58,200 nucleotides of DNA. Source: Bacillota bacterium (GTDB lineage: Bacteria; Bacillota_I; Bacilli_A; RFN20; CAG-826). Under the pieces are notes generated by a model. The model was not told the DNA's origin, made no database searches, and saw only the letters and a program-made list of their open reading frames with translations. Position 1 is the first letter of the stretch, and every line of letters starts with the position of its first letter. Position numbers and translations under genes: made by a program. Below, in pieces: positions 38,158 to 58,200 of this stretch. The stretch is taken from assembly GCA_039799785.1 (NCBI GenBank), contig JBDLRZ010000045.1, positions 1 through 58,200 of the forward strand, read 5' to 3'.

Positions 38158-38171
38158 TGTAAGCGCATACA
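38158..38171 (+). promoter_or_regulatory. cre-like / LacI-family operator palindrome TGTAAGCGCATACA
   Basis: One mismatch to the cre consensus TGWAANCGNTNWCA. It lies 9 nt downstream of a TATAAA box (38144-38149), upstream of the phosphorylase-like gene. Confidence 0.45.
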
Positions 38172-38231
38172 AGATATCATATGATAAAAGAAACCGATTT
38201 CCTAAATACGGGAAATCAAAGGATATGCGTT

Positions 38232-41200
38232 ATGAAAACCTTTATCAGTGATCGTTATCAAAAACAAAAACCCTTTGCAGGCTTTTTACCTGGTATTGCA
38301 GGCAAAGAAGGACTACCAATGTGGGTCTTTTATGTGAATCGTGGTCAGGCGATTAGTACCTTTGGTGTTCGAGATAAAAACGGTGCAATTTCAGAATTTT
38401 ATCCTGCTAATTTAGCGTATGCATATATCCATCAAAATGGATTTCGCACTTTTATTAAATATAAAGAAGAAGTATACGAATGCTTCCAAGAAAAAAATGA
38501 AGCGCAATCTCTAACCGTTGATGCGCATGAAATCGTCATTGAAGAAACCATTCAAAAATGGAATCTTAAAATTAAAGTCACATACGCTACGCTCCCAAAT
38601 ATGCCGCTATCCGCGTTGATGAGAAAAGTAGACATCACTTCCTTAGATGGTATTGAAAAAAAACTTATTGTGATCGATGGACTAGCACAAATCTTACCTG
38701 CTGGTATTGATTACGGTGGTTACAAAGCTGTCAGTTATTTGTTACAAAGCTGGATGGAAGTTCAAGAAAATGACAATCATGTCTTTTTAAAACTACGCGC
38801 ATCAACGGCAGATTCTAGTGAAGTAAAAGCAGTAGATGATGGAAATTTTTATACTTATGTTGGATTGAATCAAAAGCAATATATATATGATTACAAGGCA
38901 GTTTTTGCTCAAGACTCTTCCTTTTCATCCCCTTATCAATTACAAACTTTAGATTATCAAAACTTAGTGAAACAAAAACAAGCCCCTGTTAATCAAGTTC
39001 CTTCTGCTTTTGTTGCTGCAGAGCTTTCTGTAAAAACCACCACAACGTTCTACGGCGTATTTGGTTACAGTCAAAATCGGGCTCAGTTATCACCTTTAGT
39101 CCAAAAGATGAATGCTGTTTTTTTAGAAAATAAGTTTAAAGAAAATAAATCGACAGTTGATTTGCTAACTTCAGAAATTCAAACCCAAACAGCAAAACCA
39201 ATGTTTGATTCTTATTTACAGCAATGCTATCTCGACAACATTTTACGGGGTGGTTATCCAATTCAATTTGAAACACTTGATGGGCCAATTGGTTACCATA
39301 TTTATTCCCGTAAACATGGCGATTTAGAAAGAGATTATAATTTCTTTTCATTAGAACCAAGTTATTTATCCCAAGGCAATGGGGCTTTCAGAGATGTGTT
39401 ACAAAACCGTCGAAATGATTTGTATTTTCACCCAGAAGTGGGAACGACCACCATCGCTCAATTTGCGTCTTTGATCCAAGCTGATGGTTACAATCCTTTA
39501 AGTATCGAAGGGATTATGTTTACGTTTAAAGGTGATGCAAATGGATATCCATCATCCATACAAGACTTACTCAAGCAAGAATTCACCCCTGGTCAAATTG
39601 CTAACTTAGCCGGTCAGTCACAATTGCCTGTGATGGAAACGGTGACTAAAATTATTCAGCAATCTCATTATCATTTTAAAGCCACATTCGGTGAAGGATA
39701 TTGGGGCGACCATTTCACGTATTTCTTGGATTTAATTGAAACTTATTTAGATATATATCCCGACCAAGTTGAATCCTTGCTTCAACAAAAGCATCGTTAT
39801 TTCTTATCGCCTGCGCATGTTTTAAAACGAGATGAAAAATATATTTTAAAGAACGGTAAAGTTCGTCAATATCATGCGGTTCATCATGACCATGCATTAC
39901 CTCAACGAGGCTGGTTGAAACTTGCAAACGGTGACGATGCAACCACATCCTTATTTGGAAAGTTAATCACCTTAGTCACGAATAAATTTTCACAATTAGA
40001 CCCGGATGGTCTCGGCTTAATGTATGAAGCTGAAAGACCGGGTTGGAATGACGCAATGAATGGGATACCTGGTTTATTTGGATCGGGTGTATCAGAAATG
40101 CTTGAATTAAAAAGAATCGTGCATTTTTTACAAAAGCAAAAGTTGGTGAATGTTGAAGTTCTATTACCACTCAAATCCCTCATCACTGCAATCTTAGGAA
40201 TCAAAGAATCTAATTTATTTGATCAATGGACGAAACGGATGGATGCCCTCGAAACCTATAGGGATCAACTCAAAACTCCATTATCGGTCACTACGTTAAG
40301 TGCCGATGTGATTCAAACGTTATTAACGCATATGGCCACAACCTTACAAAACTCCATAGATCGATTATTAAACATTCATCCAATTCCATACACTTATTTT
40401 ATGTATGAAGTTGACCAATATGATTTATTACCAAAAACGAATCCAAACGCACTCCAGACAGTTCGTGCAAAATCTTTCAAACGCTCACCATTACCTCACT
40501 TTTTGGAAGCACCTGCAAGAATGTTATCCAACGGATTCTTAACCCCTCAACAAGCGACCAAACTTTATACTGCGATCCAACAATCTCCGTTGTATGATGC
40601 CCCATTAAAAATTTATAAGACAAGTGCGCCACTAGATCAACAATCCATGGAAATCGGACGTATTCGTGCGTTCACTCCGGGTTGGTTAGAACGAGAATCT
40701 GCATTCTTACACATGACGTATAAATATATGCTTGGCTTATTAAAAGCAGAAGCTTATCCTTCATTTTTTGAAGCGATACAATATGGTCTCACGTGCTTTA
40801 TGGATCCCAAAGTATATGGTCGATCACCACTAGAAAACTCATCGTTTATTGCAACCACTAACAATCCTGATTCATCCAAACATGGCCAAGGATTTTATGC
40901 TCGATTATCGGGTTCAACAGCAGAAGTCCTATCGATGTGGAAACGATTAATGTTAGGAACAACATTGTTTACATACACGCAAGGTAAACTTCAATTTCAA
41001 ATCCATCCAACCATCTCACTCGATTATTTTAAGGATGGGAAAATCGAAACGACTTTATTTGCCAACACAAAAATACGTTTATTGATCACTGAAACATTAA
41101 AACCAACTGACAAAACTTTAAATGTTGTCGGATATCGTTTAATTTCACCTCATCAAACCCAACCTATTGTCATCCAAGGTTCCTCCATTCAAGGGGACCA

Positions 41201-41279
41201 CGCGTTGGCAATTCGGCAAAAACGATTTAGCGAGATCGAAGTTTTATTAAAAGGAGGACAACCAGCAACGATTAATTGA
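38232..41279 (+). CDS. Large (alpha/alpha)6-barrel glycoside phosphorylase-like protein (GH94-clan; GH94/GH149/GH161-like, possibly a beta-1,3-glucan/oligosaccharide phosphorylase)
   Basis: About 1000 aa with no signal peptide. ERPGWNDAMNG (40032-40064) resembles the catalytic-Asp motif DWND of GH94 phosphorylases, and ESAFLHMTYKY resembles the phosphate-binding His region. The ATG at 38232 has an AAAGGA RBS; the ORF-track start is 38181. The family assignment is from memory only. Confidence 0.5.
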   Translation: MKTFISDRYQKQKPFAGFLPGIAGKEGLPMWVFYVNRGQAISTFGVRDKNGAISEFYPANLAYAYIHQNGFRTFIKYKEEVYECFQEKNEAQSLTVDAHEIVIEETIQKWNLKIKVTYATLPNMPLSALMRKVDITSLDGIEKKLIVIDGLAQILPAGIDYGGYKAVSYLLQSWMEVQENDNHVFLKLRASTADSSEVKAVDDGNFYTYVGLNQKQYIYDYKAVFAQDSSFSSPYQLQTLDYQNLVKQKQAPVNQVPSAFVAAELSVKTTTTFYGVFGYSQNRAQLSPLVQKMNAVFLENKFKENKSTVDLLTSEIQTQTAKPMFDSYLQQCYLDNILRGGYPIQFETLDGPIGYHIYSRKHGDLERDYNFFSLEPSYLSQGNGAFRDVLQNRRNDLYFHPEVGTTTIAQFASLIQADGYNPLSIEGIMFTFKGDANGYPSSIQDLLKQEFTPGQIANLAGQSQLPVMETVTKIIQQSHYHFKATFGEGYWGDHFTYFLDLIETYLDIYPDQVESLLQQKHRYFLSPAHVLKRDEKYILKNGKVRQYHAVHHDHALPQRGWLKLANGDDATTSLFGKLITLVTNKFSQLDPDGLGLMYEAERPGWNDAMNGIPGLFGSGVSEMLELKRIVHFLQKQKLVNVEVLLPLKSLITAILGIKESNLFDQWTKRMDALETYRDQLKTPLSVTTLSADVIQTLLTHMATTLQNSIDRLLNIHPIPYTYFMYEVDQYDLLPKTNPNALQTVRAKSFKRSPLPHFLEAPARMLSNGFLTPQQATKLYTAIQQSPLYDAPLKIYKTSAPLDQQSMEIGRIRAFTPGWLERESAFLHMTYKYMLGLLKAEAYPSFFEAIQYGLTCFMDPKVYGRSPLENSSFIATTNNPDSSKHGQGFYARLSGSTAEVLSMWKRLMLGTTLFTYTQGKLQFQIHPTISLDYFKDGKIETTLFANTKIRLLITETLKPTDKTLNVVGYRLISPHQTQPIVIQGSSIQGDHALAIRQKRFSEIEVLLKGGQPATIN

Positions 41280-41331
41280 TTCGCGTAGGGAAAAATTGTT
41301 CACTCTTAATCATCATGAAAGGAAATTATTG

Positions 41332-43911
41332 ATGAAACATTATTGGAAAGGTCTCACCATTACATTAGCAGCACTTGTGCTTGCAGCGTGTGGTACACCA
41401 AGTTCAAGTAGCCAAACGAGTTCAGCATCTACACTAACGTCGATTACCATCACGGGTGCAAATGATATCTCAATCGAATTTGACGCTGATTTTAATTTCT
41501 TAACCGGCGTTACTGCTACTGGTAATACAGGCGCAGATTATACGTCTAGTATTACGCTTTCCTCGATTTCAACCGCGGTTAATACGACCACAGGTGAATT
41601 AGACACGACTAGAACCGGTGTTCACACGGTGCAATATCGCGTTCAATCTGGAACCATTGTTGCTACAAAATTTAGAAACGTAACGGTACAACAACCAGAA
41701 TCAACTGGTGGCATGTTACTCAATCCAGATTTTGCTTTAGGCACCGCTGGATGGACTGATCCAAGTGTTGTCTATAACGAAAGTGGATCAAGTATTGAAT
41801 TTGATACTGAAGATGGCGCATTAAAAGTTGTGGTCGTCACAAGTCCTGTTGCCTATGCACCTCGATTTGGACAAATGAATGTCCCATTTGAAATCGATAC
41901 AACTTATGAAGTTAGCTTTAGAGCGAAATCAAGTGCTGCTAAACCTATTAATTTAAACGCTGGTGAATTGTTAACCTCCGCTCCTTGGTTCACGGATTTC
42001 AAACCTGGTCAACCAGAAGTAAGAACCATCGGAACTGAATGGGCAACGTATTCGTTTATCTTCACCCATCGTTTAGACAATCAACGTGGTGGTATTTTAT
42101 TTGAATTAGGTACGGTCAGTGGTCAAAGTGTCAATGCAACGATGTATTTTGATGACATCACGATTGAAGAAGCGACCGCCGGTCCAGATGTGACTGCTCC
42201 AAACTTCTCTGGTGTTACTAGTACAATCAGTGTCTTAGTTGGATCAACGTATGATCCATTAAATGGTGTCACCGCATTAGACATTGTTGATGGTGATTTA
42301 ACGGATTCAATTTTAGTAGAAATCCTTGATAGCAATAACGCGACTGTTAATACCGTGGACACGAGCGCTCCTGGTGTTTACACGGTCAATTATTCTGTTG
42401 AAGACGCAGCTGGAAATGAAGCGACTGCTCAAACCACCGTCAACGTGGTCAGTTTAGCTTTCAGAAATGAAAACTTATTAGCGAATGGTTCGTTCGCTGA
42501 TGCTTTAGGCGCTGAATGGGGTTATTGGCAACAAGATTGGGGCACTGCTCCAGTTGTAAATCGTACCCAAGATACCGCTGCTGGAACCTATAGTTTAGAT
42601 ATTACAGGTGGCGGCGATGCTGTCTGGGCAATTCAATTCTTCCAAGATGGGGTTGAACTCGTCGAAGGAACAACGTATCGTTTATCCGTTACTGCCGCTG
42701 CTTCCGTTGCACGTAAAATAAGCGTTGGCATTGGAAATGGCAATCCATGGAATGAATATGCCCGTAAGAACGGTCTTGAAATTGGAACCACATCATCAAC
42801 ACAAGACTTTGTCTTTACTGTTACCAAAGCAACTGCAGATGTAAAGGTTGTTTTAGAATTAGGCAGTCAAGATGGTTTTGCTAATGGTGCGTTAACACTT
42901 TCAGAAGTTCGTTTACAACGTCTTGATGCTGCACCTTTACTCAGTGATTCAAAATTCGCCATGACTGGTTGGAGACATTTCGTTAACGATTGGGATGGCA
43001 CAGTTGCCACTTCCGGTATTGTTGCGGGTGAATATAAAATGTCAATTACGAAAACCGTTGGTTTAAATCCAACTGCAGATAATTGGAAATTACAAATTAT
43101 CCAAGATAACGTTGCATTTGGTGAAACGGTTGATAATGGCCGCATGAATTTAACGGTTGGAAAATCCTATACGTTAAGTTTTGATATGTATGCTTCCCAA
43201 GCCATCAGTGTCACGACCTTTATTGGTGCTCCTGGTGTCTGGGTCAACTATGTTCCAGAAGTGAATCGTACCAATTCAGTTACCACAAGTAAGCAAACCA
43301 TTACGATTCCAGTGAGTACGGTTGGTGCAACCTTAAATGGTAATGAAAAATTATCGTTTGAATTTGGATCTTCCTTTACAAACTTTGAATCTGGTAATGA
43401 ATTTGTGGCGATTGACAATGTTGTTTTAAAAGAAGGTAATACCGTTTTACCTAATGTCATCAACGGTGATATGAATGCAATTTTAGGTGGTCATACATTC
43501 TTCACAGAAAATGGTGGAGCGATGACACGTGGTACCAATGGCGGAGCTTCCATCGAGGTTCCTGCATTAGGTGGTGCTGCTTATCAACCTCACTATTACT
43601 ATGTGTTCCCAACGCTTGCCAAAGGAAACTATGAAGTGAAGATTGCGTTAACAAGTTCAGTTACCCGTGATTTACGCTTCAATATTATTCTCCCAGATGC
43701 AGGTTATGCTTCGATCTTACCTGACAACTTTGTTGATTTTAGAGTAACTGCAGATTCACCTTATGTCTTTACCGTTTCCTTTGAAGTGGTCAATCCATTA
43801 ACCAATGTGAAGCTTGAATTAGACTTAGGTAACCTCGGTGGTGATAAAATCTCTTTACCAGGTACATTCTTAATCTCAGAAGTACTCGTCTACGCCAACT
43901 ACAATAGCTAA
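41332..43911 (+). CDS. Surface lipoprotein with two Ig-like (DUF5011-type) and four CBM4/9-like carbohydrate-binding modules
   Basis: Lipobox LVLAAC-G after MKHYWKGLTITLAA. A DUF5011-like segment is VGSTYDPLNGVTALDIVDGDLTD...GVYTVNYSVEDAAGNEA. There are four repeats of the pattern N[GP]xF...W...(beta-sandwich)...DD/DN[IV]x[IL]. No catalytic motif was seen. Confidence 0.6.
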   Translation: MKHYWKGLTITLAALVLAACGTPSSSSQTSSASTLTSITITGANDISIEFDADFNFLTGVTATGNTGADYTSSITLSSISTAVNTTTGELDTTRTGVHTVQYRVQSGTIVATKFRNVTVQQPESTGGMLLNPDFALGTAGWTDPSVVYNESGSSIEFDTEDGALKVVVVTSPVAYAPRFGQMNVPFEIDTTYEVSFRAKSSAAKPINLNAGELLTSAPWFTDFKPGQPEVRTIGTEWATYSFIFTHRLDNQRGGILFELGTVSGQSVNATMYFDDITIEEATAGPDVTAPNFSGVTSTISVLVGSTYDPLNGVTALDIVDGDLTDSILVEILDSNNATVNTVDTSAPGVYTVNYSVEDAAGNEATAQTTVNVVSLAFRNENLLANGSFADALGAEWGYWQQDWGTAPVVNRTQDTAAGTYSLDITGGGDAVWAIQFFQDGVELVEGTTYRLSVTAAASVARKISVGIGNGNPWNEYARKNGLEIGTTSSTQDFVFTVTKATADVKVVLELGSQDGFANGALTLSEVRLQRLDAAPLLSDSKFAMTGWRHFVNDWDGTVATSGIVAGEYKMSITKTVGLNPTADNWKLQIIQDNVAFGETVDNGRMNLTVGKSYTLSFDMYASQAISVTTFIGAPGVWVNYVPEVNRTNSVTTSKQTITIPVSTVGATLNGNEKLSFEFGSSFTNFESGNEFVAIDNVVLKEGNTVLPNVINGDMNAILGGHTFFTENGGAMTRGTNGGASIEVPALGGAAYQPHYYYVFPTLAKGNYEVKIALTSSVTRDLRFNIILPDAGYASILPDNFVDFRVTADSPYVFTVSFEVVNPLTNVKLELDLGNLGGDKISLPGTFLISEVLVYANYNS

Positions 43912-43926
43912 AGGAGGCCATGGATA

Positions 43927-45384
43927 GTGAAACATAAAGCCAAACTATCCGTTGTAGCCTTGTTTGTCCTTGCTGGATGTGGGGGAACCCCATCCAGTAG
44001 CGGCAACACTACAACGAGTGAAACATTACAACCCGTGACGCTCTCTTATGCGGATTGGGGAAATCAAGAACTCAATCAACGCATGATTGATTTATTTCAA
44101 GCTCGATATCCACATATTACCGTTGAATTACGACAAGATATTGTCGGTGCAGGTTCACAATTTACTGGCAATCTCGTCACAGCAGCTCAAGCTGGATTAC
44201 TACCAGACGTCTTTGCTACGGATAACGTCCCTACCGTTATCAATGCTGGTTTGACGTTGGATGTTGCCCAATATTGGGATGCCGATGAAGATGCAGCACT
44301 AGTCTATGACAATATCGCCCTTGCAGGTGTTTATAACGGTAAGCGATACGCCGTTCCTTCTTTCCAATTCTTAAAAGGTATTTTGATGAATTTAAATATC
44401 TTTGAACGGGCCAATTTACAAACCGTTCCTGGAAGATATCGTATTGATAATGATGGTTATCCAGTTAAAGATTGGACCTTTGAAGAATTCGTGAATATTG
44501 CTACCGACATTAAAAATTTCGATTTAGTGAATACCGAAAATTTAGTGGTTGGGATGGACACATGGTATGGATCTCCGGATTTCCAACAAGTGTGGCCGAT
44601 GATGCAAAATGCTGAAACCCAATACGATACGTGGGATGGTGAACAATTCAATTACACCTCGGCGGATTGGATTAGTGCGATGCAAGCTAAAGTTGCACTC
44701 CATCAATTAACCGATGGAACCACCACGCGCTTTACACCAGAAGATTATGATGCAGAAGATAATGACGAATTAAGAACGTATATGATTCAAACCGGTTATG
44801 CCGCAATGGACATCGAAGGGTCGTGGCAATTCTGGGTGATTAAAGATGCATTAGATAATCGTGATTTTGAACTCGGATTCTGGCCATATCCACAAGGTGA
44901 TGCTGGATTATTCCCACCCACTATTCTAGACTTCCAAGCAGTGTCGTCACAAACCGAACATCCAGAAGAAGCTTATTTATTAGCCAAATGGATGACGTTT
45001 GGACGCGATGGTTGGGATGCTAGACTTTCCTTACTTGAAGAAGATCGAGAAGATGCAATTGCTGAAGGTTTGACACCTGAATTCTTGGATCGATTCCCAA
45101 TTGCCGACTATCCAGAAATTTGGACAAGAGTTGAAGGCTTAGTTGAAGGGATTGAAGGGATTGATGCCATTTTTGATCGCATTGAATATTCAAAACCGGA
45201 CTTAGACAAATGGTTACCAGGATATAAAGATTTCTGGGCTTGGGCATATACGCCTGAGAATCCATTTAACTTCGATAACTTAGTTGCCGAAGGACCGAAT
45301 GCAGTGCCAACCTATGCTGCAGCCTGGGAAGCACAAATCAATACGTTAGTTGCAGAACAACTTGCCGCGTTAGGTGCAGGTTAG
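43927..45384 (+). CDS. ABC transporter solute-binding lipoprotein (carbohydrate, family 1)
   Basis: GTG start after AAAGGAGG, lipobox FVLAGC-G, a typical SBP_bac_1-like sequence and the operon context. Confidence 0.85.
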   Translation: MKHKAKLSVVALFVLAGCGGTPSSSGNTTTSETLQPVTLSYADWGNQELNQRMIDLFQARYPHITVELRQDIVGAGSQFTGNLVTAAQAGLLPDVFATDNVPTVINAGLTLDVAQYWDADEDAALVYDNIALAGVYNGKRYAVPSFQFLKGILMNLNIFERANLQTVPGRYRIDNDGYPVKDWTFEEFVNIATDIKNFDLVNTENLVVGMDTWYGSPDFQQVWPMMQNAETQYDTWDGEQFNYTSADWISAMQAKVALHQLTDGTTTRFTPEDYDAEDNDELRTYMIQTGYAAMDIEGSWQFWVIKDALDNRDFELGFWPYPQGDAGLFPPTILDFQAVSSQTEHPEEAYLLAKWMTFGRDGWDARLSLLEEDREDAIAEGLTPEFLDRFPIADYPEIWTRVEGLVEGIEGIDAIFDRIEYSKPDLDKWLPGYKDFWAWAYTPENPFNFDNLVAEGPNAVPTYAAAWEAQINTLVAEQLAALGAG

Positions 45385-45397
45385 TATCAACATCCTC

Positions 45398-45423
45398 GGG
45401 AGGTTTCTAAAACGAAACCTCCC
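45398..45423 (+). promoter_or_regulatory. Intra-operon GC-rich stem-loop after the SBP gene
   Basis: GGGAGGTTTC, loop taaaac, GAAACCTCCC (10-bp perfect stem) with no following U-tract. Confidence 0.5.
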
Positions 45424-45436: not shown

Positions 45437-48400
45437 ATGAAAAAAATAAAATTGAATCTACCCAACTTTAATACAAAACAAACTGGCATTTGGCTAGTTG
45501 TTTTGTTTATGGGCATCACTGGTTTTGTTTTTTTGATTGATCAAACACCCGCTCCATTGAACCAAAGTTTTAACACCTATGATTTTATTCAACCTGATTT
45601 TGATTATGCCTATCAAAATCAAGTGTATGGCATCCCAACTTATACTGCGAAGCAAGATTTTTACCAAGAAGCTGGAGTAGCTAAGACGGGTTATGAGGCT
45701 GTTTATGACGCTACCGATATGGATGGACTTGCCGTTGGTGTTAATGATGAAGACTATGGTGAAATTGTTGAAAATTATGATCTACCCAACGACGTCTTCT
45801 TAATGAATGAATTATCTTCTGTATCGTTTATGTATGATGGCCAGGATAGCGGCATTATTTCACTTGCGCTTGATTATTACTTACTTGATCAAGGAACAGA
45901 AGATACCAAAATTGCTTTAACGATTAATAACGAATATCAATTCTATGAATCCCAAACCTTAGTGCTTCCTGCTTCTTGGATGTTTGCCGAAGAAAATTTC
46001 CCTCTTGATCGATACGAAAACGAATTACAACCACAATCGATGAAAGTGAATCAATGGTCCAATCATGTCTTACGCGATATGAAAGCGATGCATGCTTATC
46101 CATATTCTTTTTATGTTGAATACGGTGATGAAATTACGTTAAGTTTTGTGAATGCAAAAGTTCTGATTGGTTTAATTCAAGTTGTTGCCACAGAACCCTT
46201 GATGGATTATGAATCGTATCGTGAGATGAGTCCCGTTGCGCCGATTGTCGATACGTTATCGATGATATCGAGTCGATCGATGATTTCGAGATCCGATGCA
46301 TCAATTCGTTTAAGAACAGAACAAGATGCCAGTAGCATGTATTACGACACGCAATTTTTAAAATTAAACACCATCTTTGGCGATAGTTGGGAACGCGGTG
46401 GTCAAACCATTAACTATGAAATTGATGTTGAAACCAGCGGATACTATGCGCTGTCTTTCCGATATCGCCAATATTTACAAAACGATATGATCAGTATGCG
46501 GAGTGTCTACATTAACGGTGCCATTCCTTTTCAAGAATTTTTAGCAATGGCGTTTCCTTACACGATGCAATTTAGAAACCGTACATTATCGCAAGAAAAT
46601 GGTGAACCTTATTATGTTTATCTAGAAGAAGGTATCAACACGATTAGTTTAGAAGCGGTCAATTATGCGTATCGATTTGCCTTGGAAACGTTGCAAACCA
46701 TCATGTCGCAAATTCAAGGATTAGCCCTTTCGATTAAGCGTTATACAGCCGGAAGTAATGATCTCTATCGCGACTGGGAAATTGAAACGTATTTCCCTCA
46801 AGCTAAAACTCAATTGATTGGGTGGGCCGATCAACTTGATGTCATGTACGAAAAACTCTTAAACCTATCGACCAATCGAACGCCTTCTCAACTTGCCAAC
46901 GTCAAAGTGAGTAGCGGAAGATTAAGAACGTTAGCAAATCAAATTAATCGCTTACCTGGATTAATGGTGCAGTTCGCCGATGGTGATTCAAGTGTGAATC
47001 AAATGCTTGGTGCGTTGCTACAAGAAATGATGCGAGCCAATCTAGAAATAGAACGAATCATGGTCCATGGTGATGTGGCATTACCTAGATCGACTGCAAC
47101 CTTCTTCCGTAGCGCTTATGAAGGTAGTGCAAGATTAGTACTGTCGTTTATCAACAATCCATATTCGGCAACGCAAATGAATGAAGAACAAATTAACGTT
47201 TGGGTTAACTTTCCAAGACCGTATATTGAAATTATGCAAGCGATGATTGATCAATTTTATCCTGGTGATCGAGAAGTGAAATTGTCACAAATGCCAGATG
47301 AAAATAAATTAATCCTTTCAAATATATCTGGTCAATCTCCTGATGTGGCTGTGGGTGTTAATCACTGGATTCCTTATGATTTTGCAGCTCGTGATGCGGC
47401 GTTAGATTTAAGACAATTCAACGGTTACACTGAAACCGTTTCTCATTTTTCTCGTGGAGCGATGATTCCTTATGTATTCGAAGAAGGTGTGTATGGGTTA
47501 CCCCTAACTCAAAATTTCTGGGTTACGTTTTATCGCCGGGATATCATGGAATCGATTGGTGTGAATAGTATTCCCCAAACGTGGGATGATGTGATTGGTA
47601 TTCTCCCGTTATTACAAAGTTACGGACTTAATTATTTCTTACCGCTATCTCAATTTTCTGGACTCAAACCATTTGTAGCGACCTTACCTTTCATTCATCA
47701 ATTTGGTGGTCAACTTTATGCAGAAGATGGCATGAGCACCACGATCAATGCAGAAGATACTTTAAAAGGTATCACCTTGATGGCAGAACTATTTACCCTT
47801 TATAACATTCCAAAATTTGTTGCTAGTTTTTATAATCAATTCCGTTATGGAACCTTGCCAATTGGTATTGGAGATTTAGGAACTTATTTATTATTGTCCA
47901 GTGCGGCAAGCGAGTTGGATGGTTTATGGGCGATGGATTTACACCCCGGTTATCGCGATCCAGAAACCCAAGAGATTAATCGTTCAAGTGCAACCGGTGC
48001 ACAAGGCTCGATGATTTTAGCAAATACCAATTTACCTGATGACAGCTGGGATTTCTTATCATGGTGGATGTCAACACCGATTCAAACGCTCTTTGGTTCA
48101 ACCTTACAAAGCACGTATGGAAAAACGTACTTCTGGAATTCTGCAAACCTAGAGGCGTTTGCACAATCCAGTATGCCTCAAGAGTACAAATCAGTTGTGT
48201 TAGAACAATGGGAATATGCTTTAGAAGCAAGTCGCATTCCTGGCACGTACATGGTTGAACGTGAATTATCCAATGCGTGGACAAACATCGTTTTCCAAGG
48301 TATCAATCCGCGTCAAGCGATTGATGAAGCGGTAAGAATTTCAAATCGTGAAATTATTTATAAGATGGCAGAATTTGGTTATACATTCCAAGGTGAAATT

Positions 48401-50231: not shown

Positions 50232-52274
50232 ATGAAACGTTGGCTTTACCTTTTCATCTTTGCAAACTTAGGGTTAATGATGCCTCAACGAACGGTGTTG
50301 CCTACCCTTGCAGATAATGGTTTACCTTATCAGACATACACCTATGCGAGTTCACGACAACAACTGATTCAAACCCAAGACGCTTATTTACCATTATCCT
50401 TAACAACCCAACTTGGTGCATTTACCTTATCGTCACCACAAGATGTTTATGTGGATGCACAAGACACCATTTATGTTGCCGATAAAGGACGAAAATCCAT
50501 CATCAAATATAATTTACAAAATGATGAGGCGATTGAAATTGGATTTGGAATTTTAAATGAGCCTACCGGTGTCCATGTCGATGAATCAGGTTCGATTTAT
50601 GTTGCGGATTTTGCCAATAAAAAAGCGTATCAATTTGTGAATGATGAAGGCGAATATGTCATTCAAGCTGAATATGAAAAACCACTTAACTCACCATTCT
50701 TTGGTGAAGATGATCCCTTTGATCCAACTAAGGTTGTCACCGATCGAGGTGGCAACGTTTATGTGTTATTGGCAGGTAACGTCAATGGTCTAGCTCAATT
50801 TAAAAATAATGGTGAATTCTTTGGTTATTTTGGTGGTAATCGCATTCCTGCAACTTTAGAAAATACCGTTCGTTCTTTATTGTTTGATGAAGAAACGCGA
50901 CGTAATTTTTTCCAAATTATTCCCAAACCAGTCTATAACGTGAGTATTGATCAAAGTGGTTTGATTTTAACATCCACCAAGGATCAAGACGGTTATTTAA
51001 AACTCAATATTGCGAACGTGATCTACAACCAATCCGTATGGGGTTTTGATACGGTTGAAGATATTGCAGTCGGTCCATACAACACCATTTATACGTTAAC
51101 GTCTGAAGGATACATCGTAGAATATGATCCCAATGGTTCGGTTTTATTTTTATTCTCAGGTCCCGATGCAATAGGGCAAAAAGGTTTATTTAAACGCGCA
51201 AAAGGGATTGCCATTGATTCTCGAAATAACTTATATGCAGTGGATGAAGCAACCGGTGCACTTCAAATCTTTATTCCTACTGATTTTGCAGACTTAGTCC
51301 ATGAAGCGATTGATTTATATTTTGATGGAAAATATGCAGAGTCCTTAGTGCCTTGGCAAAATGTTTTAAAAATGAATCGTCTCTTTGATTTGGCTAACCA
51401 AGGTCTTGGTGATGCTTATTATGCGCTTCAAGACTATGAATCAGCATTAACTTATTATCGATTAGCGAGAGATACACGTGGTTATTCCAACGCTTACTGG
51501 GAAGTTAGAAATCAATTCTTATTGGCAAACGGCAATACATTTGTCATTTTCCTCATCATCGTTGCGGTCTTTTATGCGTTAAGAAAATTTGTTCCTGGTT
51601 ATGTTTGGTTACAAACCCAAGTGACAAACTTCAAGCAAAAAACAAACCTACCAGCTTGGTTAAAGGAATTACGGTTTCCGCTTCAAGTCTTTGCCAAACC
51701 GGTTGATGGGTATGATGATATTAAACGTCACAAAACCTTCTCTAATCGAAGTGCATTCTTATATTTAATTGCTTTCTTTGTCACGTATCTCATTTGGATT
51801 TATGAAACGAATTTCTTATTTAATGGTTTGATCTCCTCTGAAATCAACATCATTGAACAAGTCATTGGCGTTTTTGTTCCATTTGGTTTATGGGTCATTA
51901 GTAATTACTTGGTCTGTTCTATTCGCGATGGTGATGGCAAATTAAGTGAAGTCTTCCAAGCTTCTGCACTCACGTTGTTGCCAATGATTATCACCTTCCC
52001 AATCTTAACGGTGATTTCCCATGCGTTAACCGCGAATGAAAGTTTCATCTATGAACTTATTTATGGGATTGGCGTGACTTTTACCGTCATCTATATGTTT
52101 ATCATGGTGAAAGAAATTCATTTCTACGATATTAAACCTACCTTCAAAAACATTCTGATCACGATTTTTACGGCAATTATGTTACTTGCCTTAACCTTGA
52201 TTATTGTCTTCTTACTTGGAGAAGTTTATCAACTGATTGCCGATATCATACAGGAGGTGAATAGCCGTGTTTAA
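50232..52274 (+). CDS. Signal peptide, NHL-repeat beta-propeller, TPR-like segment and C-terminal Yip1-type 5-TM domain protein
   Basis: NHL-like repeats are IYVADKGRKSIIKYN, IYVADFANKKAYQF, NVYVLLAGNVNGLAQF and LYAVDEATGALQIF. The TPR-like segment is GLGDAYYALQDYESALTYYRLA. The C-terminal polytopic region is reminiscent of the bacterial YIP1 family. Confidence 0.55.
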   Translation: MKRWLYLFIFANLGLMMPQRTVLPTLADNGLPYQTYTYASSRQQLIQTQDAYLPLSLTTQLGAFTLSSPQDVYVDAQDTIYVADKGRKSIIKYNLQNDEAIEIGFGILNEPTGVHVDESGSIYVADFANKKAYQFVNDEGEYVIQAEYEKPLNSPFFGEDDPFDPTKVVTDRGGNVYVLLAGNVNGLAQFKNNGEFFGYFGGNRIPATLENTVRSLLFDEETRRNFFQIIPKPVYNVSIDQSGLILTSTKDQDGYLKLNIANVIYNQSVWGFDTVEDIAVGPYNTIYTLTSEGYIVEYDPNGSVLFLFSGPDAIGQKGLFKRAKGIAIDSRNNLYAVDEATGALQIFIPTDFADLVHEAIDLYFDGKYAESLVPWQNVLKMNRLFDLANQGLGDAYYALQDYESALTYYRLARDTRGYSNAYWEVRNQFLLANGNTFVIFLIIVAVFYALRKFVPGYVWLQTQVTNFKQKTNLPAWLKELRFPLQVFAKPVDGYDDIKRHKTFSNRSAFLYLIAFFVTYLIWIYETNFLFNGLISSEINIIEQVIGVFVPFGLWVISNYLVCSIRDGDGKLSEVFQASALTLLPMIITFPILTVISHALTANESFIYELIYGIGVTFTVIYMFIMVKEIHFYDIKPTFKNILITIFTAIMLLALTLIIVFLLGEVYQLIADIIQEVNSRV

Positions 52275-54633
52275 ACTATCACGATTCATCATCCCGATGA
52301 TCTTATTGCCTGTATTGATTGTCACCACACAAGAAGATCCTACTTTGATGGTGGCCCCTCGTGTCGATAATTTTGCCTTTATTGAAAATCAGTTATTGAG
52401 TAGTTCAAGATATACGCAAGTCGATGAACAAAATGAATCCGTGTTAAATCGATTTGAAGAAGATTTTAATTTGCAATATACCAACGAACAACTCGACTTA
52501 CTTGGTTACGAATTGATGCTTGAAAATAATCAATTAAATTTATATTTTGAAAAAGACTCTTTTTCACTCATTCTTGAAGATAAAACAACCGGTTATATGT
52601 TGTCGTCACGACCAGAATTCCAAGGTTATTCAGAAACTAGAGAAGATAATACCGCAAACCGAAACCTAATGAATTCAGGCTTATGGATTGAATCGATACG
52701 CACCAACAACATTAGTAGCAGCGCGATTAAAGTTGAATCTCTCTATACGATCGCCGATGCCAGTTACCAAACGAATGGTTCTCAAGATTTAGCGAACATT
52801 GATTGGACAAAGCCTTATTTGCTAGAAACAAATAGTTATCAAAGAAACCGTGTTCAAGTCACCACTTCCAATGTGAATGCATCGAGTTTTACGACTACCA
52901 TCAATGTCACCAATTATGGTTTTGAATTTGATATCAATATTATTTTGCAATCGAATGGTTTTTCTGTGCAATTTGACCCAACCACCGTGCAAGAAACGAA
53001 TGACCAGTACCGATTATTAGGTTTACAATTTTTCCCATACTTTGGCTCTGCTCGTGAAGATGTTTATCCTGGTTATGTGGTCATCCCTGATGGTGTTGGT
53101 GCCTTGGTGAGAACTAATCAAAGATTCGATAAAACATATCAATCCGATTATTTCGGTTCCGATTTAGGTTATCTTAGAACCTCGATAGCCGATTTATCCT
53201 TACCGATCTATGGCATGATTCATCAAGTCGATCGCATTGGTTTTTACCATGAAATTGTCGAAGGTGCAGAACATGCAACGTTACTCGCCAATTTTTGGGG
53301 AAGAAATACACGCTACCACCGTATTACCAATCGTTATAACGTTCGCAGAATTTTTAGAAACATTATTAACCGCGCTGGAGATGGTCAAGATGTTTTACCT
53401 GAAGAAATGGTGATGCAACCCTATGAAGGAACGTATCAATTATTAAAGAATGATCAAGCAAGTTATGTTGGTATTGCCCAATCTTATCAAGCAAATTTAG
53501 AAGCAAGACAATCTATCCGTTCTCTTGAACCCACACAAACACCGATGCAAGTCGCCATGATTATTCATGAACAAGAACCCACTTTCTTTGGTACTTCAAG
53601 ATTAACCATGACGTCCATGGATGATGTTCAAACCATTCGCGACCGATTAATGGAAGACGGCATCGAAGAACAAGTCCTTGTCCTTAAGGGTTGGTCTGAT
53701 GACGGCTTAGCGTATCGACAACCGTATTACTTTAATTTACCTGATCGCCAAGGTTTAATCGATGTCATGGAAGATGTGAATGCTGATGGTCAACATGTAT
53801 ATCTAGAACAAGATTATTTAGTGAGTAGTGAATTATCCTCACGTGTTCAATTTAATCGTGATGTCGCAAGAAACTATTCTAAACTTAAAATGAGTTACCG
53901 GCTTAATCGTCTCGATAACCAACCGATTAATGAATATTATTTATATCCTTCGATCGCGGAACAAAAATTAGCGAATGATCTTGATGCAATCCAAGATTTA
54001 GGTGCAACTGGTTTTGCCTTCCCATCTTTAGGCAATACGTTATATAGTTATTACGATGATGATCGCTTTAATCGAACGGAAACGCTTAACACCGTGACTT
54101 CGATGGCGGCCTCCTTATCTGCGAATGCTATGCAACGACCTTCCGCATATATGTTTCCACATCTCAATCATTATCTCGATATGCCGATCACCAATAGTCA
54201 GCTTGATTTATTTACGGATTTAGTCCCACTCGTACCCTATGTTTTAAAAGGATATATTCCGACCTTTACGCCTTATTTAAACTTTAATGCTTTAGGAAAA
54301 GAACGATTACTTCAAATGATTGATTTTGCGGTCAATCCAAGTTATTTATTAACCGAAAAACCAAGTAGCGAATTACGTTACACCTATAGTAATAAATATT
54401 TCACAACGGCGTATGAAGATTTCCAAGATGACATTCGCGATGTTTATGCTTACATTGCCAGTGCATTAGATCATATTTTAGGTGCGAAGGTTTTGAATCG
54501 TTCCATCATCCAAACGGGCGTTAGTCGTGTTGAATACGATAATGGTGTGACTTTATACATCAATTACCGTTCTACACCTGTGACGGTTGATGAAATCACG
54601 ATAAGTGCCTTGGATTATGAGGTGGTGTTATGA
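52267..54633 (+). CDS. DUF5696-like extracytoplasmic protein of unknown function (788 aa)
   Basis: GTG start after AGGAGG, with an N-terminal signal/anchor FIIPMILLPVLIV. It has no motifs I recognise, and VLVLKGWSDDGL...HVYLEQDY suggests a TIM-barrel-like glycosidase fold. The family name comes from my memory of similar gene neighbourhoods. Confidence 0.45.
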   Translation: MFKLSRFIIPMILLPVLIVTTQEDPTLMVAPRVDNFAFIENQLLSSSRYTQVDEQNESVLNRFEEDFNLQYTNEQLDLLGYELMLENNQLNLYFEKDSFSLILEDKTTGYMLSSRPEFQGYSETREDNTANRNLMNSGLWIESIRTNNISSSAIKVESLYTIADASYQTNGSQDLANIDWTKPYLLETNSYQRNRVQVTTSNVNASSFTTTINVTNYGFEFDINIILQSNGFSVQFDPTTVQETNDQYRLLGLQFFPYFGSAREDVYPGYVVIPDGVGALVRTNQRFDKTYQSDYFGSDLGYLRTSIADLSLPIYGMIHQVDRIGFYHEIVEGAEHATLLANFWGRNTRYHRITNRYNVRRIFRNIINRAGDGQDVLPEEMVMQPYEGTYQLLKNDQASYVGIAQSYQANLEARQSIRSLEPTQTPMQVAMIIHEQEPTFFGTSRLTMTSMDDVQTIRDRLMEDGIEEQVLVLKGWSDDGLAYRQPYYFNLPDRQGLIDVMEDVNADGQHVYLEQDYLVSSELSSRVQFNRDVARNYSKLKMSYRLNRLDNQPINEYYLYPSIAEQKLANDLDAIQDLGATGFAFPSLGNTLYSYYDDDRFNRTETLNTVTSMAASLSANAMQRPSAYMFPHLNHYLDMPITNSQLDLFTDLVPLVPYVLKGYIPTFTPYLNFNALGKERLLQMIDFAVNPSYLLTEKPSSELRYTYSNKYFTTAYEDFQDDIRDVYAYIASALDHILGAKVLNRSIIQTGVSRVEYDNGVTLYINYRSTPVTVDEITISALDYEVVL

Positions 54634-55697
54634 AGAAAAAACTCACATCACTTTTAAAAAATATCTGGCAATCCATTCGCCATTTTTTTACAAGGTTAAA
54701 TAACGCATATCAACGCCATATCCAACCATTCTTGGATCGCTTCTTTTACCGTTTAAGACACAATGTGATCTATCGAGAAATAGGAAACACGGTAAAGCTT
54801 TTTTCTTTCATCACCATACGGATTACCAGAAAACGTCGACATGCTTTTTACGGTTACCTGTTTATCCTTATATGGCTGATTGGCATCTCTATTTTTACAT
54901 TGTATCCATTAGGTTATTCATTCTATTTAAGTTTCCATGAAGCGTACTATAACCTTCAAGAAGGGGTTGTCACCACGTTTATTGGCTTTACCAATTATTT
55001 AAATATTTTCCGTAGTCAGACGCTTGTTCCTGCATATTCCAATTACCTTGGTCGCATGGTTGTAGCTGTGCCCATCATTATTGTTTTCTCCATCATTATT
55101 GCAGTCCTCGTGAACATGCCAATCAAAACAAAAAGTTTATGGCGAACCATTTTCTTCCTTCCGGTGATCATTTCTACGGGTCCCGTTATCAATGAACTCA
55201 ATGCTCAAAGTGCAATTACCCTACCGAATTTACAAGCCAGTGGCATCTATAGTTATATCGTCAATAACTTACCAGGATTTCTTGCCGATCCTTTAACAAC
55301 GGTCATCAATTCGATGTTGTTGATTCTTTGGTATGCAGGGATTCCGATTTTAATTTATTTAGCCGGATTACAAAAAATCGATCCTAGTTTATATGAGGCT
55401 GCCAGCATGGATGGTGCTTCACCTTGGATGCGATTCTGGAAAATTACCTTACCTTCTTTGATGCCGTTTACTGGCATTTCGATTGTGTATGTGGTGGTCT
55501 CGATGTCTTTATTTGTTGAACCAGGTGGCATTTTAGATTTAACGAGAACCCATATGTTAGTCGGTGCGCCTGATTCTGCCTTTTGGTTTGGATATGGTTA
55601 TGCAGCAGCAATGGCATGGGTTTATTTTTTATGCATGGTCATCTTAATTGTGGTTTTCACCAGTATTACTAGAGAAAAGAGAGGAAAACTAAAATGA
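54630..55697 (+). CDS. Carbohydrate ABC transporter permease (MalF type) with an N-terminal basic extension of about 65 aa
   Basis: EAA loop YEAASMDGASPWMRFWKITLPSLMP. The start overlaps the upstream stop as ATGA. Confidence 0.85.
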   Translation: MKKKLTSLLKNIWQSIRHFFTRLNNAYQRHIQPFLDRFFYRLRHNVIYREIGNTVKLFSFITIRITRKRRHAFYGYLFILIWLIGISIFTLYPLGYSFYLSFHEAYYNLQEGVVTTFIGFTNYLNIFRSQTLVPAYSNYLGRMVVAVPIIIVFSIIIAVLVNMPIKTKSLWRTIFFLPVIISTGPVINELNAQSAITLPNLQASGIYSYIVNNLPGFLADPLTTVINSMLLILWYAGIPILIYLAGLQKIDPSLYEAASMDGASPWMRFWKITLPSLMPFTGISIVYVVVSMSLFVEPGGILDLTRTHMLVGAPDSAFWFGYGYAAAMAWVYFLCMVILIVVFTSITREKRGKLK

Positions 55698-56632
55698 AAA
55701 TTTCCTCAATCTTAAGTGTGACCAATCAACAAAAATTAAAAAAAGTTTGGTTCGGTAAAACGTTAACCGATGGACTTTTATATAAATTTGTCATTTATCT
55801 TTTGTTAATCAGCTTTAGTTATATCTACTTATATCCTTTGTTGTTTATGTTGATCAATAGTTTGAAATCCGTTGATGATCTCATTAATCCAGGTGTGCAA
55901 TGGATTCCCACGGTCCTCATGTGGGAAAACTATGAGCGCGCATTCCAAGTGTTGAGTTTGCCCCAATCCTTCATTGATTCCACTGTCTATGTTTTAAAAG
56001 TGAGTGTCAGTGCAACCTTATCCAGTGCGTTGATTGGATATGGCTTTGCACGTTTTGATTTCCCATTTAAACGTTTATTCTTTGCGATCATGCTTGCGAC
56101 CTTTATTCTGCCTCAACAAGTGACGATGGTCGCAAACATGCTGATCTTCAGAGAACTTGAAATCATCTCAACGGAATGGTCGATGCTGTTACCTGCGATG
56201 ACTGGACAAGGGATTAATGCTGCCATTTATATACTTATTTTTTATACCTTCTACCGAACTATTCCTGGTATCTTAATTGAATCCGCTGAAGTCGATGGCG
56301 CAGGTCAATTGAGAATTTTCCGCACGATCATCCTACCGTTAGCGATTCCTTCTTTTGTAATTGTGTTCTTATTTAGTTTTGTTTGGTATTGGAATGAATC
56401 ATTCATCACTGGTTTATATGTAGGCGATAAGGTGACATTACCTCTATGGTTACAGGCATTCCGTTCTTCCTATGAAACGATTTTCCCACCTGGTACACCT
56501 GGTGCAGAATTAAATGAAGCGATCTTATTATCAGGGAATATGCTGACGATATTACCTTTATTGCTTCTCTATTTCTTTGGTCAAAAGTTATTTACCCAAA
56601 GTATTGATAAAACAGGGATTACGGGAGAATAA
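55694..56632 (+). CDS. Carbohydrate ABC transporter permease (MalG type)
   Basis: EAA loop IESAEVDGAGQLRIFRTIILPLAIP, with an ATGA overlap with the upstream gene. Confidence 0.9.
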   Translation: MKISSILSVTNQQKLKKVWFGKTLTDGLLYKFVIYLLLISFSYIYLYPLLFMLINSLKSVDDLINPGVQWIPTVLMWENYERAFQVLSLPQSFIDSTVYVLKVSVSATLSSALIGYGFARFDFPFKRLFFAIMLATFILPQQVTMVANMLIFRELEIISTEWSMLLPAMTGQGINAAIYILIFYTFYRTIPGILIESAEVDGAGQLRIFRTIILPLAIPSFVIVFLFSFVWYWNESFITGLYVGDKVTLPLWLQAFRSSYETIFPPGTPGAELNEAILLSGNMLTILPLLLLYFFGQKLFTQSIDKTGITGE

Positions 56633-57783
56633 TGATGAAAAAAATTTGGCCAATCACGTTCTTAGCCTTTATCGTCACATCTTGCGTGAATCCAAGCGTG
56701 AGTTCATCTTCCTCAGGTGTTCCGAATGGTTTATTGCCCTTAACGCCAGTAGAAGGATGTGGCGTTCAAACAATTGATAATCAATGGGTTTGTACTTGGA
56801 CGGATGAATTTAACGGAAACACACTCAATAGCGAACACTGGAATGTCGAAGTCAACGGCGATGGCGGTGGCAACCAAGAAGCCCAATATTATCGGAATGA
56901 AAACATTTCGGTGAGTGATTGAACGTTAAAAATTACTGGTAAAAAAGAAAATTACTTAGGCAAACAATATACCAGTGGTCGAATCAATTCTCGTTATAAA
57001 GTGAACCCTCAATTTGGTCGTGTGACCTTTAGGGCTAAAATGCCAGCGGGAAGAGGAACATGGGCTGCGGTGTGGATGCTACCGTTATTTAATCGCTTTG
57101 GTCAATGGCCTAATAGCGGTGAAATTGATATTTTAGAATATGTTGGTTATGATCCTGGTACTGTATTTTCTGCGACGCATACGACTAAATTTAACCACAA
57201 CAATAACAATAACCCCAGTGCATCAAGAGTATTAGTAGACCCAGAAAATCAATTCTATGAATATGAAATGATTTGGTTACCTGGAGAAATTCGAATGTTC
57301 GTAGAAGGTAATCCTTATGGAACGTATCGATATGTCCCGCAATTTAATCAAGATGTGACGTTTGATGATGTCTTTCCATTTCAAGAAGAATTTTATTTCA
57401 TTATCAATTTAGCCATTGGTGGAAGTTGGGGTGGTGTGCAAGGGATTGATCCACTTGCCTTTCCGACAGTCTTAGAAATAGACTATCTTCGTTTATATCA
57501 ATGGGATTATGCACTTCATGATCTTACATCTCCTGAAAAACCTGCAGCTCTCGCAACTTCACAATTGGATAACACCATTCATTGGAATCGTCCAACGGAT
57601 GATACATGGGTAAGTCACTACGCAATTTATTTAGATGGTGTTAAATACCGCGAAGCAAAAATCAATCAATATACCTTTGTAGGCTTAGAACAACGCGATT
57701 ATCAAGTGCAAGTGGAAGCGATTGATTTTGTCGGTCGAACCTCTCCTTTATCGGATGCCATTACCTTTACCTTTGGAGGTTAA
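56632..57783 (+). pseudogene. GH16 beta-1,3(-1,4)-glucanase lipoprotein with C-terminal FN3-like domain, interrupted by one in-frame TGA (56920-56922)
   Basis: Lipobox FIVTSC. GH16 signatures are WNVEVNGDGGGNQEAQYY, YTSGRINS and WAAVWMLP, with the catalytic GEIDILE at 57121-57138. The two ORF-track pieces (56632-56922 and 57001-57783) share a frame, and the stretch between them also reads through (TLKITGKKENYLGKQYTSGRINSRYK). Confidence 0.8.
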
Positions 57784-57787
57784 ATGT

Positions 57788-58200
57788 ATGTTAAAACCAC
57801 ACCGCAAGCTTGTGTTCAAAGAAACTTTTGGGACATTGAATCGTGAGGTTTGGAATTTAGAAGTTGGTGAAAAGTGGTTTAATGATGAACGACAATGTTA
57901 TGTTGATTCACCTAAGAATTTACAACTGACCAAACAAGGCTTGCGCATCATCGCTGATGTTTCACCTGCCTTAAGTAAATGCCGTTATCAATCGATACGG
58001 ATGAATACAAAAGATAAAAAAGAATGGCAATATGGAACTTTTATTGCGCGAGCAAAACTTCCACATGGCAAGGGTTCTTGGCCTGCTATCTGGTTTTTAG
58101 GTCATGATATTGGAGACGTCAAATGGCCTTTATGTGGCGAAATTGATTTATTGGAAATGGTGGGACATGATCCTGAAGTGATGCATTTTAGTTTGCATTC
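57788..58200 (+). CDS. Second GH16 glucanase, no signal peptide (partial; runs off the right edge)
   Basis: Translation from the ATG at 57788 is MLKPHRKLVFKETFGTLNREVWNLEVGEKWFNDERQCYVDSPKNL...YGTFIARAKLPHGKGSWPAIWFLG...CGEIDLLEMVGH (catalytic ExDxxE at 58139-58156). It is not in the ORF track because no stop falls within the window. Confidence 0.8.
   Translation, partial: MLKPHRKLVFKETFGTLNREVWNLEVGEKWFNDERQCYVDSPKNLQLTKQGLRIIADVSPALSKCRYQSIRMNTKDKKEWQYGTFIARAKLPHGKGSWPAIWFLGHDIGDVKWPLCGEIDLLEMVGHDPEVMHFSLH

Follow-up and report, generated by a model that had tools for sequence, protein, structure and literature searches.

The stretch of DNA analysed here (the window) comprises 58,200 nucleotides of contig JBDLRZ010000045.1 from a Bacillota bacterium, and the system in question is a glycan locus at positions 38181-58200, in which genes for solute-binding proteins (SBPs), ATP-binding cassette (ABC) permeases and two accessory membrane proteins are flanked by genes for beta-1,3-glucan enzymes and for a lipoprotein with carbohydrate-binding modules (CBMs). 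Calling of open reading frames (ORFs) under genetic code 11 gives 13 co-directional plus-strand ORFs, which abut or overlap, with gaps of 16, 15, 52, 1 and 4 nt and overlaps of 1-8 nt at six junctions. Terminator-like hits within the locus are not in excess (18 observed, against 14.7 +/- 4.1 in shuffled sequences). With glycoside hydrolase families abbreviated as GH and transmembrane as TM, the features, assigned by the evidence in parentheses, are:

38157-38203, plus strand: predicted promoter/operator region (promoter scan, consensus match, conservation in relatives)
38181-41279, plus strand: GH161 beta-1,3-glucan phosphorylase without signal peptide (PDB matches to GH161)
41296-43911, plus strand: surface lipoprotein with CBM4_9 modules and an Ig-like domain (Pfam; lipobox LAAC)
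43927-45384, plus strand: small lipoprotein SBP, 485 aa (lipobox LAGC; PDB match)
45437-48463, plus strand: giant membrane-anchored SBP, 1008 aa (AlphaFold2 (AF2) model, Foldseek, Pfam of homologues)
48456-49352, plus strand: permease 1a, MalF/UgpA-like, with EAA loop (Pfam BPD_transp_1, NCBIfam UgpA/GlcT-like)
49352-50230, plus strand: permease 1b, MalG/UgpE-like, with EAA loop (BPD_transp_1)
50232-52274, plus strand: NHL beta-propeller, TPR and Yip1 membrane protein, 680 aa (Pfam, hydropathy)
52267-54633, plus strand: DUF5696 protein, 788 aa, with N-terminal TM anchor (Pfam PF18952)
54630-55697, plus strand: permease 2a, MalF-like, with N-terminal extension and EAA loop (BPD_transp_1)
55694-56632, plus strand: permease 2b, MalG-like, with EAA loop (BPD_transp_1)
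56632-57783, plus strand: GH16a, laminarinase lipoprotein with a C-terminal extra domain (lipobox VTSC; Pfam GH16)
57788-58200, plus strand: GH16b, laminarinase without signal peptide, hence assigned to the cytoplasm (gene cut by the window end; 238 aa in L008, a 99%-identical contig)

The inner genes follow the order small SBP, giant SBP, permease pair 1, NHL-(TPR)-Yip1, DUF5696 and permease pair 2. A scan of a genome collection with the DUF5696 protein yielded 51 loci from Acholeplasmataceae, Mariniplasma, Peloplasma aerotolerans (Mollicutes) and metagenome-assembled genomes of freshwater 'Bacilli', and all those long enough to judge keep the order CBM lipoprotein, SBP, giant SBP, permease pair, NHL-Yip1, DUF5696, permease pair and GH16, down to a DUF5696 identity of 41%; the Acholeplasmataceae loci retain the whole locus, including GH94, GH16, LacI and GH161. 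A plasmid collection gave two DUF5696 matches. Further loci have the cassette beside other genes:

L052, Logan metagenome contig: GH2 and GH38
L055, Paenibacillus cellulosilyticus: ugpC ATPase gene, directly upstream of the cassette
L056, Butyrivibrio fibrisolvens: GH43
L057, Roseburia: LacI and two GH53
L058, Halanaerobiales, with the sub-modules swapped: GH67, GH3, two GH10 and GH30
L059, Cohnella: LacI and GH26

In a metagenome scan with a diverse DUF5696 alignment, at least 576 matches were confirmed, and 80 loci were retained and typed with seven reference cassettes. The NHL-Yip1 gene lies directly upstream of the DUF5696 gene in 60 of 60 evaluable loci, and permease pair 2 directly downstream of it in 65 of 65. 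The giant SBP together with pair 1 is present in 48 of the 80 loci, the full canonical order in 37 and a swapped order in three, while 37 have an SBP of ~460 aa encoded immediately before the giant SBP. In L058, L089, L117 and L142, the NHL/Yip1-DUF5696-pair 2 sub-module comes ahead of giant SBP-pair 1. Recurrent neighbours in the metagenome loci are GH10 (11 loci), LacI (seven), GH26, GH5, GH130, GH43 and GH78; overall, the enzymes flanking the cassette belong to GH10, GH26, GH5, GH130, GH43, GH53, GH38, GH2, GH67, GH78 and GH16.

The pair that follows the giant SBP is always orthologous to pair 1 of the window (39-63% identity) and the pair that follows DUF5696 always to pair 2 (30-41%), with cross-pair identities of 21-29%, and the same holds in loci of permuted order. 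From this position-specific orthology it can be inferred that the cassette is ancient and composed of two sub-modules, one of giant SBP and pair 1, the other of NHL/Yip1, DUF5696 and pair 2. Carriers include Roseburia, Butyrivibrio, Acetatifactor, Paenibacillus, Cohnella, Halanaerobiales and Acholeplasmatales, and the comparison of their sequences argues firmly that the core is a substrate-independent uptake cassette of eight to nine genes, not one specific to beta-glucan. A preliminary description, made from the window sequence alone, had placed a three-gene core (giant SBP, NHL-TPR-Yip1, DUF5696) in a beta-glucan locus; these genes are conserved, but the unit is the larger cassette, to which the small SBP and both permease pairs also belong. 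Co-occurrence of giant SBP, permease pairs, NHL-Yip1 and DUF5696 elsewhere, which it had proposed as a test, was strongly borne out in Acholeplasmatales, Lachnospiraceae, Paenibacillaceae and Halanaerobiales. Likewise, no functional characterisation of the trio, and no paper on DUF5696 or describing the cassette, was found in the literature searched (open-access papers only).

The small SBP matches PDB 22hh ('extracellular solute-binding protein family 1', E 1.5e-22), and its homologue in L062 carries PF01547. The giant SBP itself has no Pfam match; its homologues carry PF01547/PF13416 (SBP_bac_1, SBP_bac_8). An AF2 model of it (mean predicted local distance difference test, pLDDT, 86.8) has a TM helix at 13-34, beta-sandwiches at ~60-250 and 270-408, a five-helix bundle at 410-532 and a MalE-like SBP fold at 537-1008. 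The best Foldseek matches, in a whole-model search dominated by the SBP half, are the oligosaccharide SBPs 5ysf, 7x0i and 5ci5, i.e. binders of sophoro-, cello- and malto-oligosaccharides. The N-terminal half gave no match by Pfam at E<=5 or by phmmer against the PDB; from the modelled sandwiches, it is plausibly a CBM.

The membrane components are those of type I (CUT1-like) importers: an EAA..DGA motif is present in all four BPD_transp_1 proteins, and the two SBPs accompany them. Because the giant SBP and pair 1 are always adjacent, the giant SBP is assigned to pair 1, and the small SBP would serve pair 2 or both pairs. No ABC ATPase for the importers was found in the locus by a six-frame search for Walker A and LSGGQ motifs, which is usual for this transporter class; in the window, the search returned only uvrB and a gene cut by the window start. 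The latter (1-863, minus strand) encodes an ABC ATPase with Walker A near position 173 and adjoins a gene for a TetR-family regulator, which is not a sugar-importer context. Bacillota sugar importers of the CUT1 class commonly share an MsmX-type ATPase encoded elsewhere.

The NHL-TPR-Yip1 protein has Pfam matches to NHL (5.6e-15), Yip1 (3e-7) and TPR_16 (7e-4), and hydropathy indicates a TM segment at 429-447 and a five-TM Yip1 domain at ~485-659. In Acholeplasmatales, Paenibacillus and Halanaerobiales NHL and Yip1 form a single fused protein; in Clostridia and Paenibacillaceae they are often encoded by separate neighbouring genes, e.g. in L056, L057, L059 and L060 (Lachnospiraceae, Cohnella), where NHL-TPR (~490-500 aa) and Yip1 (206 aa) are the products of separate, overlapping genes. 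This alternation of fusion and adjacency is, in the Rosetta-stone sense, a hint that NHL and Yip1 may interact. TM anchors and lipoboxes firmly predict that all of the accessory proteins face outward.

The DUF5696 protein matches PF18952 over model positions 8-612 of 612 (E 3e-122; 409.5 bits, against a cut-off of 25.6), and the family has 4,535 clusters at 50% identity (E<=1e-3). Its AF2 model (pLDDT 85.4) comprises an extracellular beta-sandwich, a (beta/alpha)8 barrel and a second beta-sandwich. Foldseek places GH129 first (5opq, E 2e-31, TM-score 0.69 per target; also 5wzn), then GH101, GH36 and GH31, over a range of E 2e-31 to 5e-12 at probability 1.00, with sequence identity of ~10-12%. 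The three-domain architecture is the same as that of GH129 (NagBb alpha-N-acetylgalactosaminidase; ZgGH129 3,6-anhydro-D-galactosidase), GH101, GH36 and GH31; by contrast with GH129, at that low identity, the DUF5696 protein is membrane-anchored and always encoded between NHL-Yip1 and a permease pair.

Among 90 members of the family, down to 18% identity, Y270, P274, D275, G276, G278, D299, R603, Y628, N672, N766 and Y767 are conserved, and an Asp or Glu is kept at 435, 651 (88%) and 686 (100%), the last two positions, D651[D/E] and D686[D/E], lying 35 residues apart in the barrel region. The motif that is strictest across distant members, GYxxxPDGxGxL (with D275), lies outside the barrel, in the N-terminal beta-sandwich, and D479 in the barrel varies among them. 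By its modelled fold, DUF5696 is glycosidase-like, and any catalysis by it is putative.

Turning to the outer genes, the phosphorylase matches PDB 9qqk ('GH161A') and 9h8v with E-values of 3e-191 and 5e-191 over residues 19-966 (~950 residues). The GH149 model is matched only weakly, below threshold, and hydropathy gives no signal peptide, which predicts a cytoplasmic location. GH161 enzymes phosphorolyse beta-1,3-gluco-oligosaccharides (PMC6484121), and the window protein is, by full-length similarity, a GH161 phosphorylase, with this activity predicted. The CBM lipoprotein, the likely start of which is ATG 41332, matches Pfam CBM_4_9 (3e-22) and Bact_surface_Ig-like (1.3e-14), and its best PDB match is 1gui, the beta-1,3-glucan-binding CBM4-2 of Thermotoga maritima laminarinase 16A. 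Both GH16 proteins match PF00722, carry ExDxxE motifs (EIDILE and EIDLLE) and have laminarinases (3iln, 5wut) as best PDB matches; GH16a has the catalytic motif EIDILE, and its intact orthologue in L008 matches the 3iln laminarinase with E 2e-58. Judged by these similarities, the outer genes are a set for the capture and breakdown of beta-1,3-glucan, and the laminarin kit itself is ordinary.

In the window, GH16a is split by an in-frame TGA at 56920-56922 into ORFs of 96 and 260 aa. The equivalent codon is GGA in L008 and GGN in 11 others, encoding Gly in 12 of 12 alignable relatives. The prfB gene (19407-20456), encoding release factor 2, carries the classic CTTTGAC +1 frameshift site at 19415-19421, and, since other long ORFs are also intact, TGA is taken to be a stop codon in this Acholeplasma-like organism; translation of TGA as an amino acid (code 4 or 25) was ruled out by the intact long ORFs under code 11, prfB with CTTTGAC and GGA/GGN in relatives. 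The TGA in GH16a has arisen through nonsense mutation or else through an error in sequencing.

The layout and parts list of the preliminary description largely stand: its 13 co-directional, mostly overlapping or abutting genes were recovered at or near the positions that it gave, with gaps of <=52 nt and six overlaps, and its beta-1,3-glucan parts, multi-CBM lipoprotein, lipoprotein SBP, two complete permease pairs (48456-50230 and 54630-56632), NHL-TPR-Yip1 and DUF5696-like identities and absence of a nucleotide-binding subunit agree with the results above, the GH16 proteins being closest to laminarinases and the CBM4 lipoprotein to a laminarinase CBM. Three of its assignments need adjustment: the 'GH94-clan-like phosphorylase' is a phosphorylase, but more sharply a GH161 member (E ~1e-191); both GH16 enzymes are GH16, but GH16a is broken and GH16b cut by the window end; and, of the 'CBM-SBP fusion', the SBP half is borne out by modelling and by homologues, but the CBM half has no Pfam or PDB match.

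Upstream of the locus, a strong hairpin at 37949-37977, with a perfect 13-bp stem and A- and T-run flanks, could, from its structure, stop transcription in both directions. It is followed by a minus-strand tRNA-Ala(CGC) gene (37990-38065), the only match in an Rfam scan, and upstream of both are minus-strand isochorismatase and glycine-cleavage genes; the hairpin and tRNA-Ala (37949-38065) part the isochorismatase gene from the glycan operon. Because the hairpin, tRNA-Ala and minus-strand genes lie upstream, the start of the transcription unit is placed within the gap at 38066-38232. A promoter scan found a promoter-like TTGTAA-17-TATGAT at 38157-38185. Two operator-like boxes, with centres 32 bp apart, overlap it: the palindrome O1, TGTAAGCGCATACA, at 38158-38171, which is the sole match to a catabolite-responsive element (cre)/LacI-type consensus within the window, and O2, GAAACCGATTTC, at 38190-38201.

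The longest-ORF start of GH161, ATG 38181, falls inside the predicted -10 box, and relatives start at the equivalent of ATG 38232. Since the boxes overlap the promoter and relatives start at the later codon, ATG 38232, with the ribosome-binding site AAAGGA at 38218-38223, is probably the true start. In an alignment of the GH161 upstream region with relatives whose giant SBPs are 88%, 76% and 63% identical, O1 and O2 are retained in L063, L064 and L065 amid diverging flanks, and O2 is exact and unique before GH161 in L061, L063, L064 and L065, including an Acholeplasmataceae locus. A strict cre-pattern scan of all loci was uninformative, the GH161 upstream region being outside most of them. As O1 fits the cre consensus, the control may be by CcpA or by the local LacI protein.

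The locus extends beyond the window end. In L008 it continues with the full 238-aa GH16b, GH30 and then a LacI-family regulator, which would place the LacI gene ~2.3 kb past the window end; in L061 and L062 (Acholeplasmataceae), genes for LacI, GH94 and a cytoplasmic GH16 lie just upstream of GH161. The claim that the locus encodes no transcription factor was thus an artefact of the window edge, in view of these LacI genes and the two conserved boxes. With a LacI gene in the relatives' loci and a palindromic candidate operator at the promoter, as in LacI-regulated operons, the region 38181-58200 is best described as most of one LacI-controlled beta-1,3-glucan (laminarin) operon, in which LacI binding is predicted. 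A foreign origin of the locus was considered and ruled out, GC content being even (0.36-0.42) and the neighbours housekeeping genes.

Overall, the explanation that we favour, with somewhat better than even confidence, is that of a LacI-controlled laminarin operon built around a reusable uptake cassette that acts with the importers. In the host, apparently a freshwater Bacillota bacterium related to Acholeplasmatales, the CBM4 lipoprotein would hold glucan at the cell surface, where the GH16 lipoprotein (the gene of which is broken in this genome) would cut it. The oligosaccharides would then enter via two MalFG-type ABC importers, served by the lipoprotein SBP and the membrane-anchored 1008-aa SBP and powered by an MsmX/UgpC-type ATPase encoded elsewhere, and, once inside, would be turned into glucose and glucose-1-phosphate by GH16b, the GH30 encoded beyond the window and GH161. 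NHL-Yip1 and the GH129-like DUF5696 protein, encoded beside pair 2, may form a surface station that holds or trims oligosaccharides and hands them to the importers, and Bacillota would place the cassette beside whichever endo-glycanases a locus needs. The analysis establishes gene content, folds, synteny, orthology and the regulatory boxes; the physical association of NHL-Yip1 and DUF5696 with the permeases, the assignment of SBPs to pairs and any catalysis by DUF5696 are steps that we infer.

Several observations weigh against this explanation. The extracellular GH16 is a pseudogene or the victim of a sequencing error in this genome; no importer ATPase is encoded in the window, nor within +/-10 kb in the Acholeplasma-type relatives L061 and L062; and two metagenome loci, L134 and L139, have a giant SBP but no detectable permease pair 1. 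The DUF5696 protein has no link to glycoside hydrolases at the sequence level, as judged by a profile search against the PDB and by Pfam at E<=1, where 33 members returned only DUF5696. Its fold neighbours, moreover, are retaining alpha-glycosidases and a 3,6-anhydro-galactosidase, and laminarin has only beta linkages.

A more far-reaching proposal, put forward tentatively, is that the cassette may be a widespread Bacillota glycan-uptake machine in which a dedicated MalFG pair works obligatorily with DUF5696 and NHL/Yip1 and a second pair is fed by the stalked, CBM-like giant SBP. It would be an enzyme-coupled or 'hand-over' ABC import complex that takes the part of SusC/D and the surface glycan-binding proteins of Bacteroidota.

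It may instead be, though we regard this as rather doubtful, that DUF5696 proteins are a new extracellular, membrane-anchored GH family with a specificity that differs from locus to locus, that NHL-Yip1 is their partner or anchor, and that there is no contact with a transporter, the fixed order reflecting co-expression. The three-domain GH129/GH101/GH36/GH31-like fold (E 2e-31) would fit such an enzyme, as would the conserved carboxylates D651[D/E] and D686[D/E], 35 residues apart in the barrel region, and the conservation of D275 and D299; the divergence of DUF5696, down to ~20% identity between cassettes that lie beside different carbohydrate-active enzymes, is what a changing specificity would predict. 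However, the substrates of the fold neighbours are alpha-linked or anhydro sugars, while several cassettes are in all-beta loci (laminarin, xylan, mannan, galactan), and the presence of pair 2 immediately downstream in 65 of 65 loci, with stop and start overlapping, is not what one would expect of an enzyme that acts on its own.

The strict genetic linkage of DUF5696 and NHL-Yip1 to pair 2 would also be explained if both were non-catalytic factors for assembly or stabilisation of the importer, DUF5696 being a pseudo-enzyme that acts as a glycan-binding or docking platform. This seems unlikely, although the strictest DUF5696 motif, GYxxxPDGxGxL, is outside the barrel, the barrel residue D479 is variable, and there is a precedent in Bacillus, where the Yip1-family membrane protein YknW is encoded and works with an ABC transporter in the YknWXYZ system (PMC4887032). 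That system differs, in that YknXYZ is not a type I importer but a MacB-type exporter, YknYZ acting with a membrane-fusion protein; the partners in the window are type I importer permeases, and the NHL propeller is part of the same protein as Yip1 or encoded next to it. Moreover, R603 and N672, with the Asp/Glu conserved at 651 and 686, resemble a sugar-handling site. Least credible by far is that two ordinary, independent sugar importers and unrelated hypothetical genes are chance neighbours in this lineage, for, while the annotations of the single parts (SBP, permease, NHL repeat, Yip1, DUF) are ordinary, the same order and position-specific orthology recur in at least three taxonomic classes and >130 loci, which contradicts chance, and protein identities of 20-60% argue against recent horizontal copies of one element.

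Returning to the laminarin operon with its reusable cassette, the closest known systems include the Gram-positive polysaccharide utilization loci (PULs) with CUT1-type importers, e.g. the mannan/xylan loci of Roseburia intestinalis and oligosaccharide loci of Bifidobacterium. Shared features are a surface endo-glycanase, a lipoprotein SBP with a MalFG-like pair, intracellular exo-enzymes and phosphorylases, a LacI regulator and, often, reliance on a common ATPase encoded at another site. By contrast with these PULs, the window locus adds a second permease pair, the 1000-aa membrane-anchored SBP with its two beta-sandwiches and helical stalk, NHL-TPR-Yip1, the GH129-like DUF5696 and a fixed order; to our knowledge, none of these added parts, nor their order, belongs to described Gram-positive PULs. 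Thus, the cassette appears to be new within a known type of system, the ABC-importer-based Gram-positive PULs.

The Sus-like laminarin PULs of Bacteroidota consist of SusC/SusD plus GH16/GH17/GH30/GH3. The window system resembles them in the sequence of surface binding, endo cut, import, completion inside and local regulation, and in a modular scaffold that is reused with different carbohydrate-active enzymes; it differs in having no outer membrane, TonB-dependent transporter or SusD, ABC importers taking their place, and there is no homology. Pfam found no SusC or SusD domains in the 13 locus proteins, so the resemblance is functional only, and the term 'Sus-like analogue' used in the preliminary description is reasonable as a functional analogy, but not as a statement about SusC/SusD. 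With regard to the enzymes, the combination of GH16 laminarinase, CBM4 binder and GH161 phosphorylase is like that for beta-1,3-glucan catabolism in Thermotogae, which have Lam16A with CBM4 modules and the GH161 enzyme THA_1941 (PMC6484121), except that in the window a distinct lipoprotein carries the CBM4 modules and the cassette lies between the enzyme genes.

Elsewhere in the window the genes are largely housekeeping ones, including dnaX, recR, tmk, prfA, prfB, secA, uvrB and glnA. At 907-7168 is an overlapping pair of genes for a VTC-domain protein and a DUF4956 protein, followed by genes for a Listeria-Bacteroides-repeat protein, a pseudouridine synthase and a 1014-aa YfhO-family membrane protein. 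At 27270-29023, on the minus strand, a 405-aa ORF without a Pfam match overlaps the end of a gene for an ECF-type sigma factor, beside which it is a probable anti-sigma factor gene.

In guts, soils and lakes, glycans are degraded to a major extent by Gram-positive and wall-less bacteria, whose uptake systems are usually drawn as one SBP and two permeases; the locus described here contains a much larger fixed module, which recurs beside xylanases, mannanases, galactanases, rhamnosidases and laminarinases. If uptake depends on the accessory proteins, the prediction of Gram-positive PULs would change, a possible new glycoside hydrolase family or pseudo-enzyme would be indicated, and the view of how wall-less Mollicutes feed on algal laminarin would be revised.

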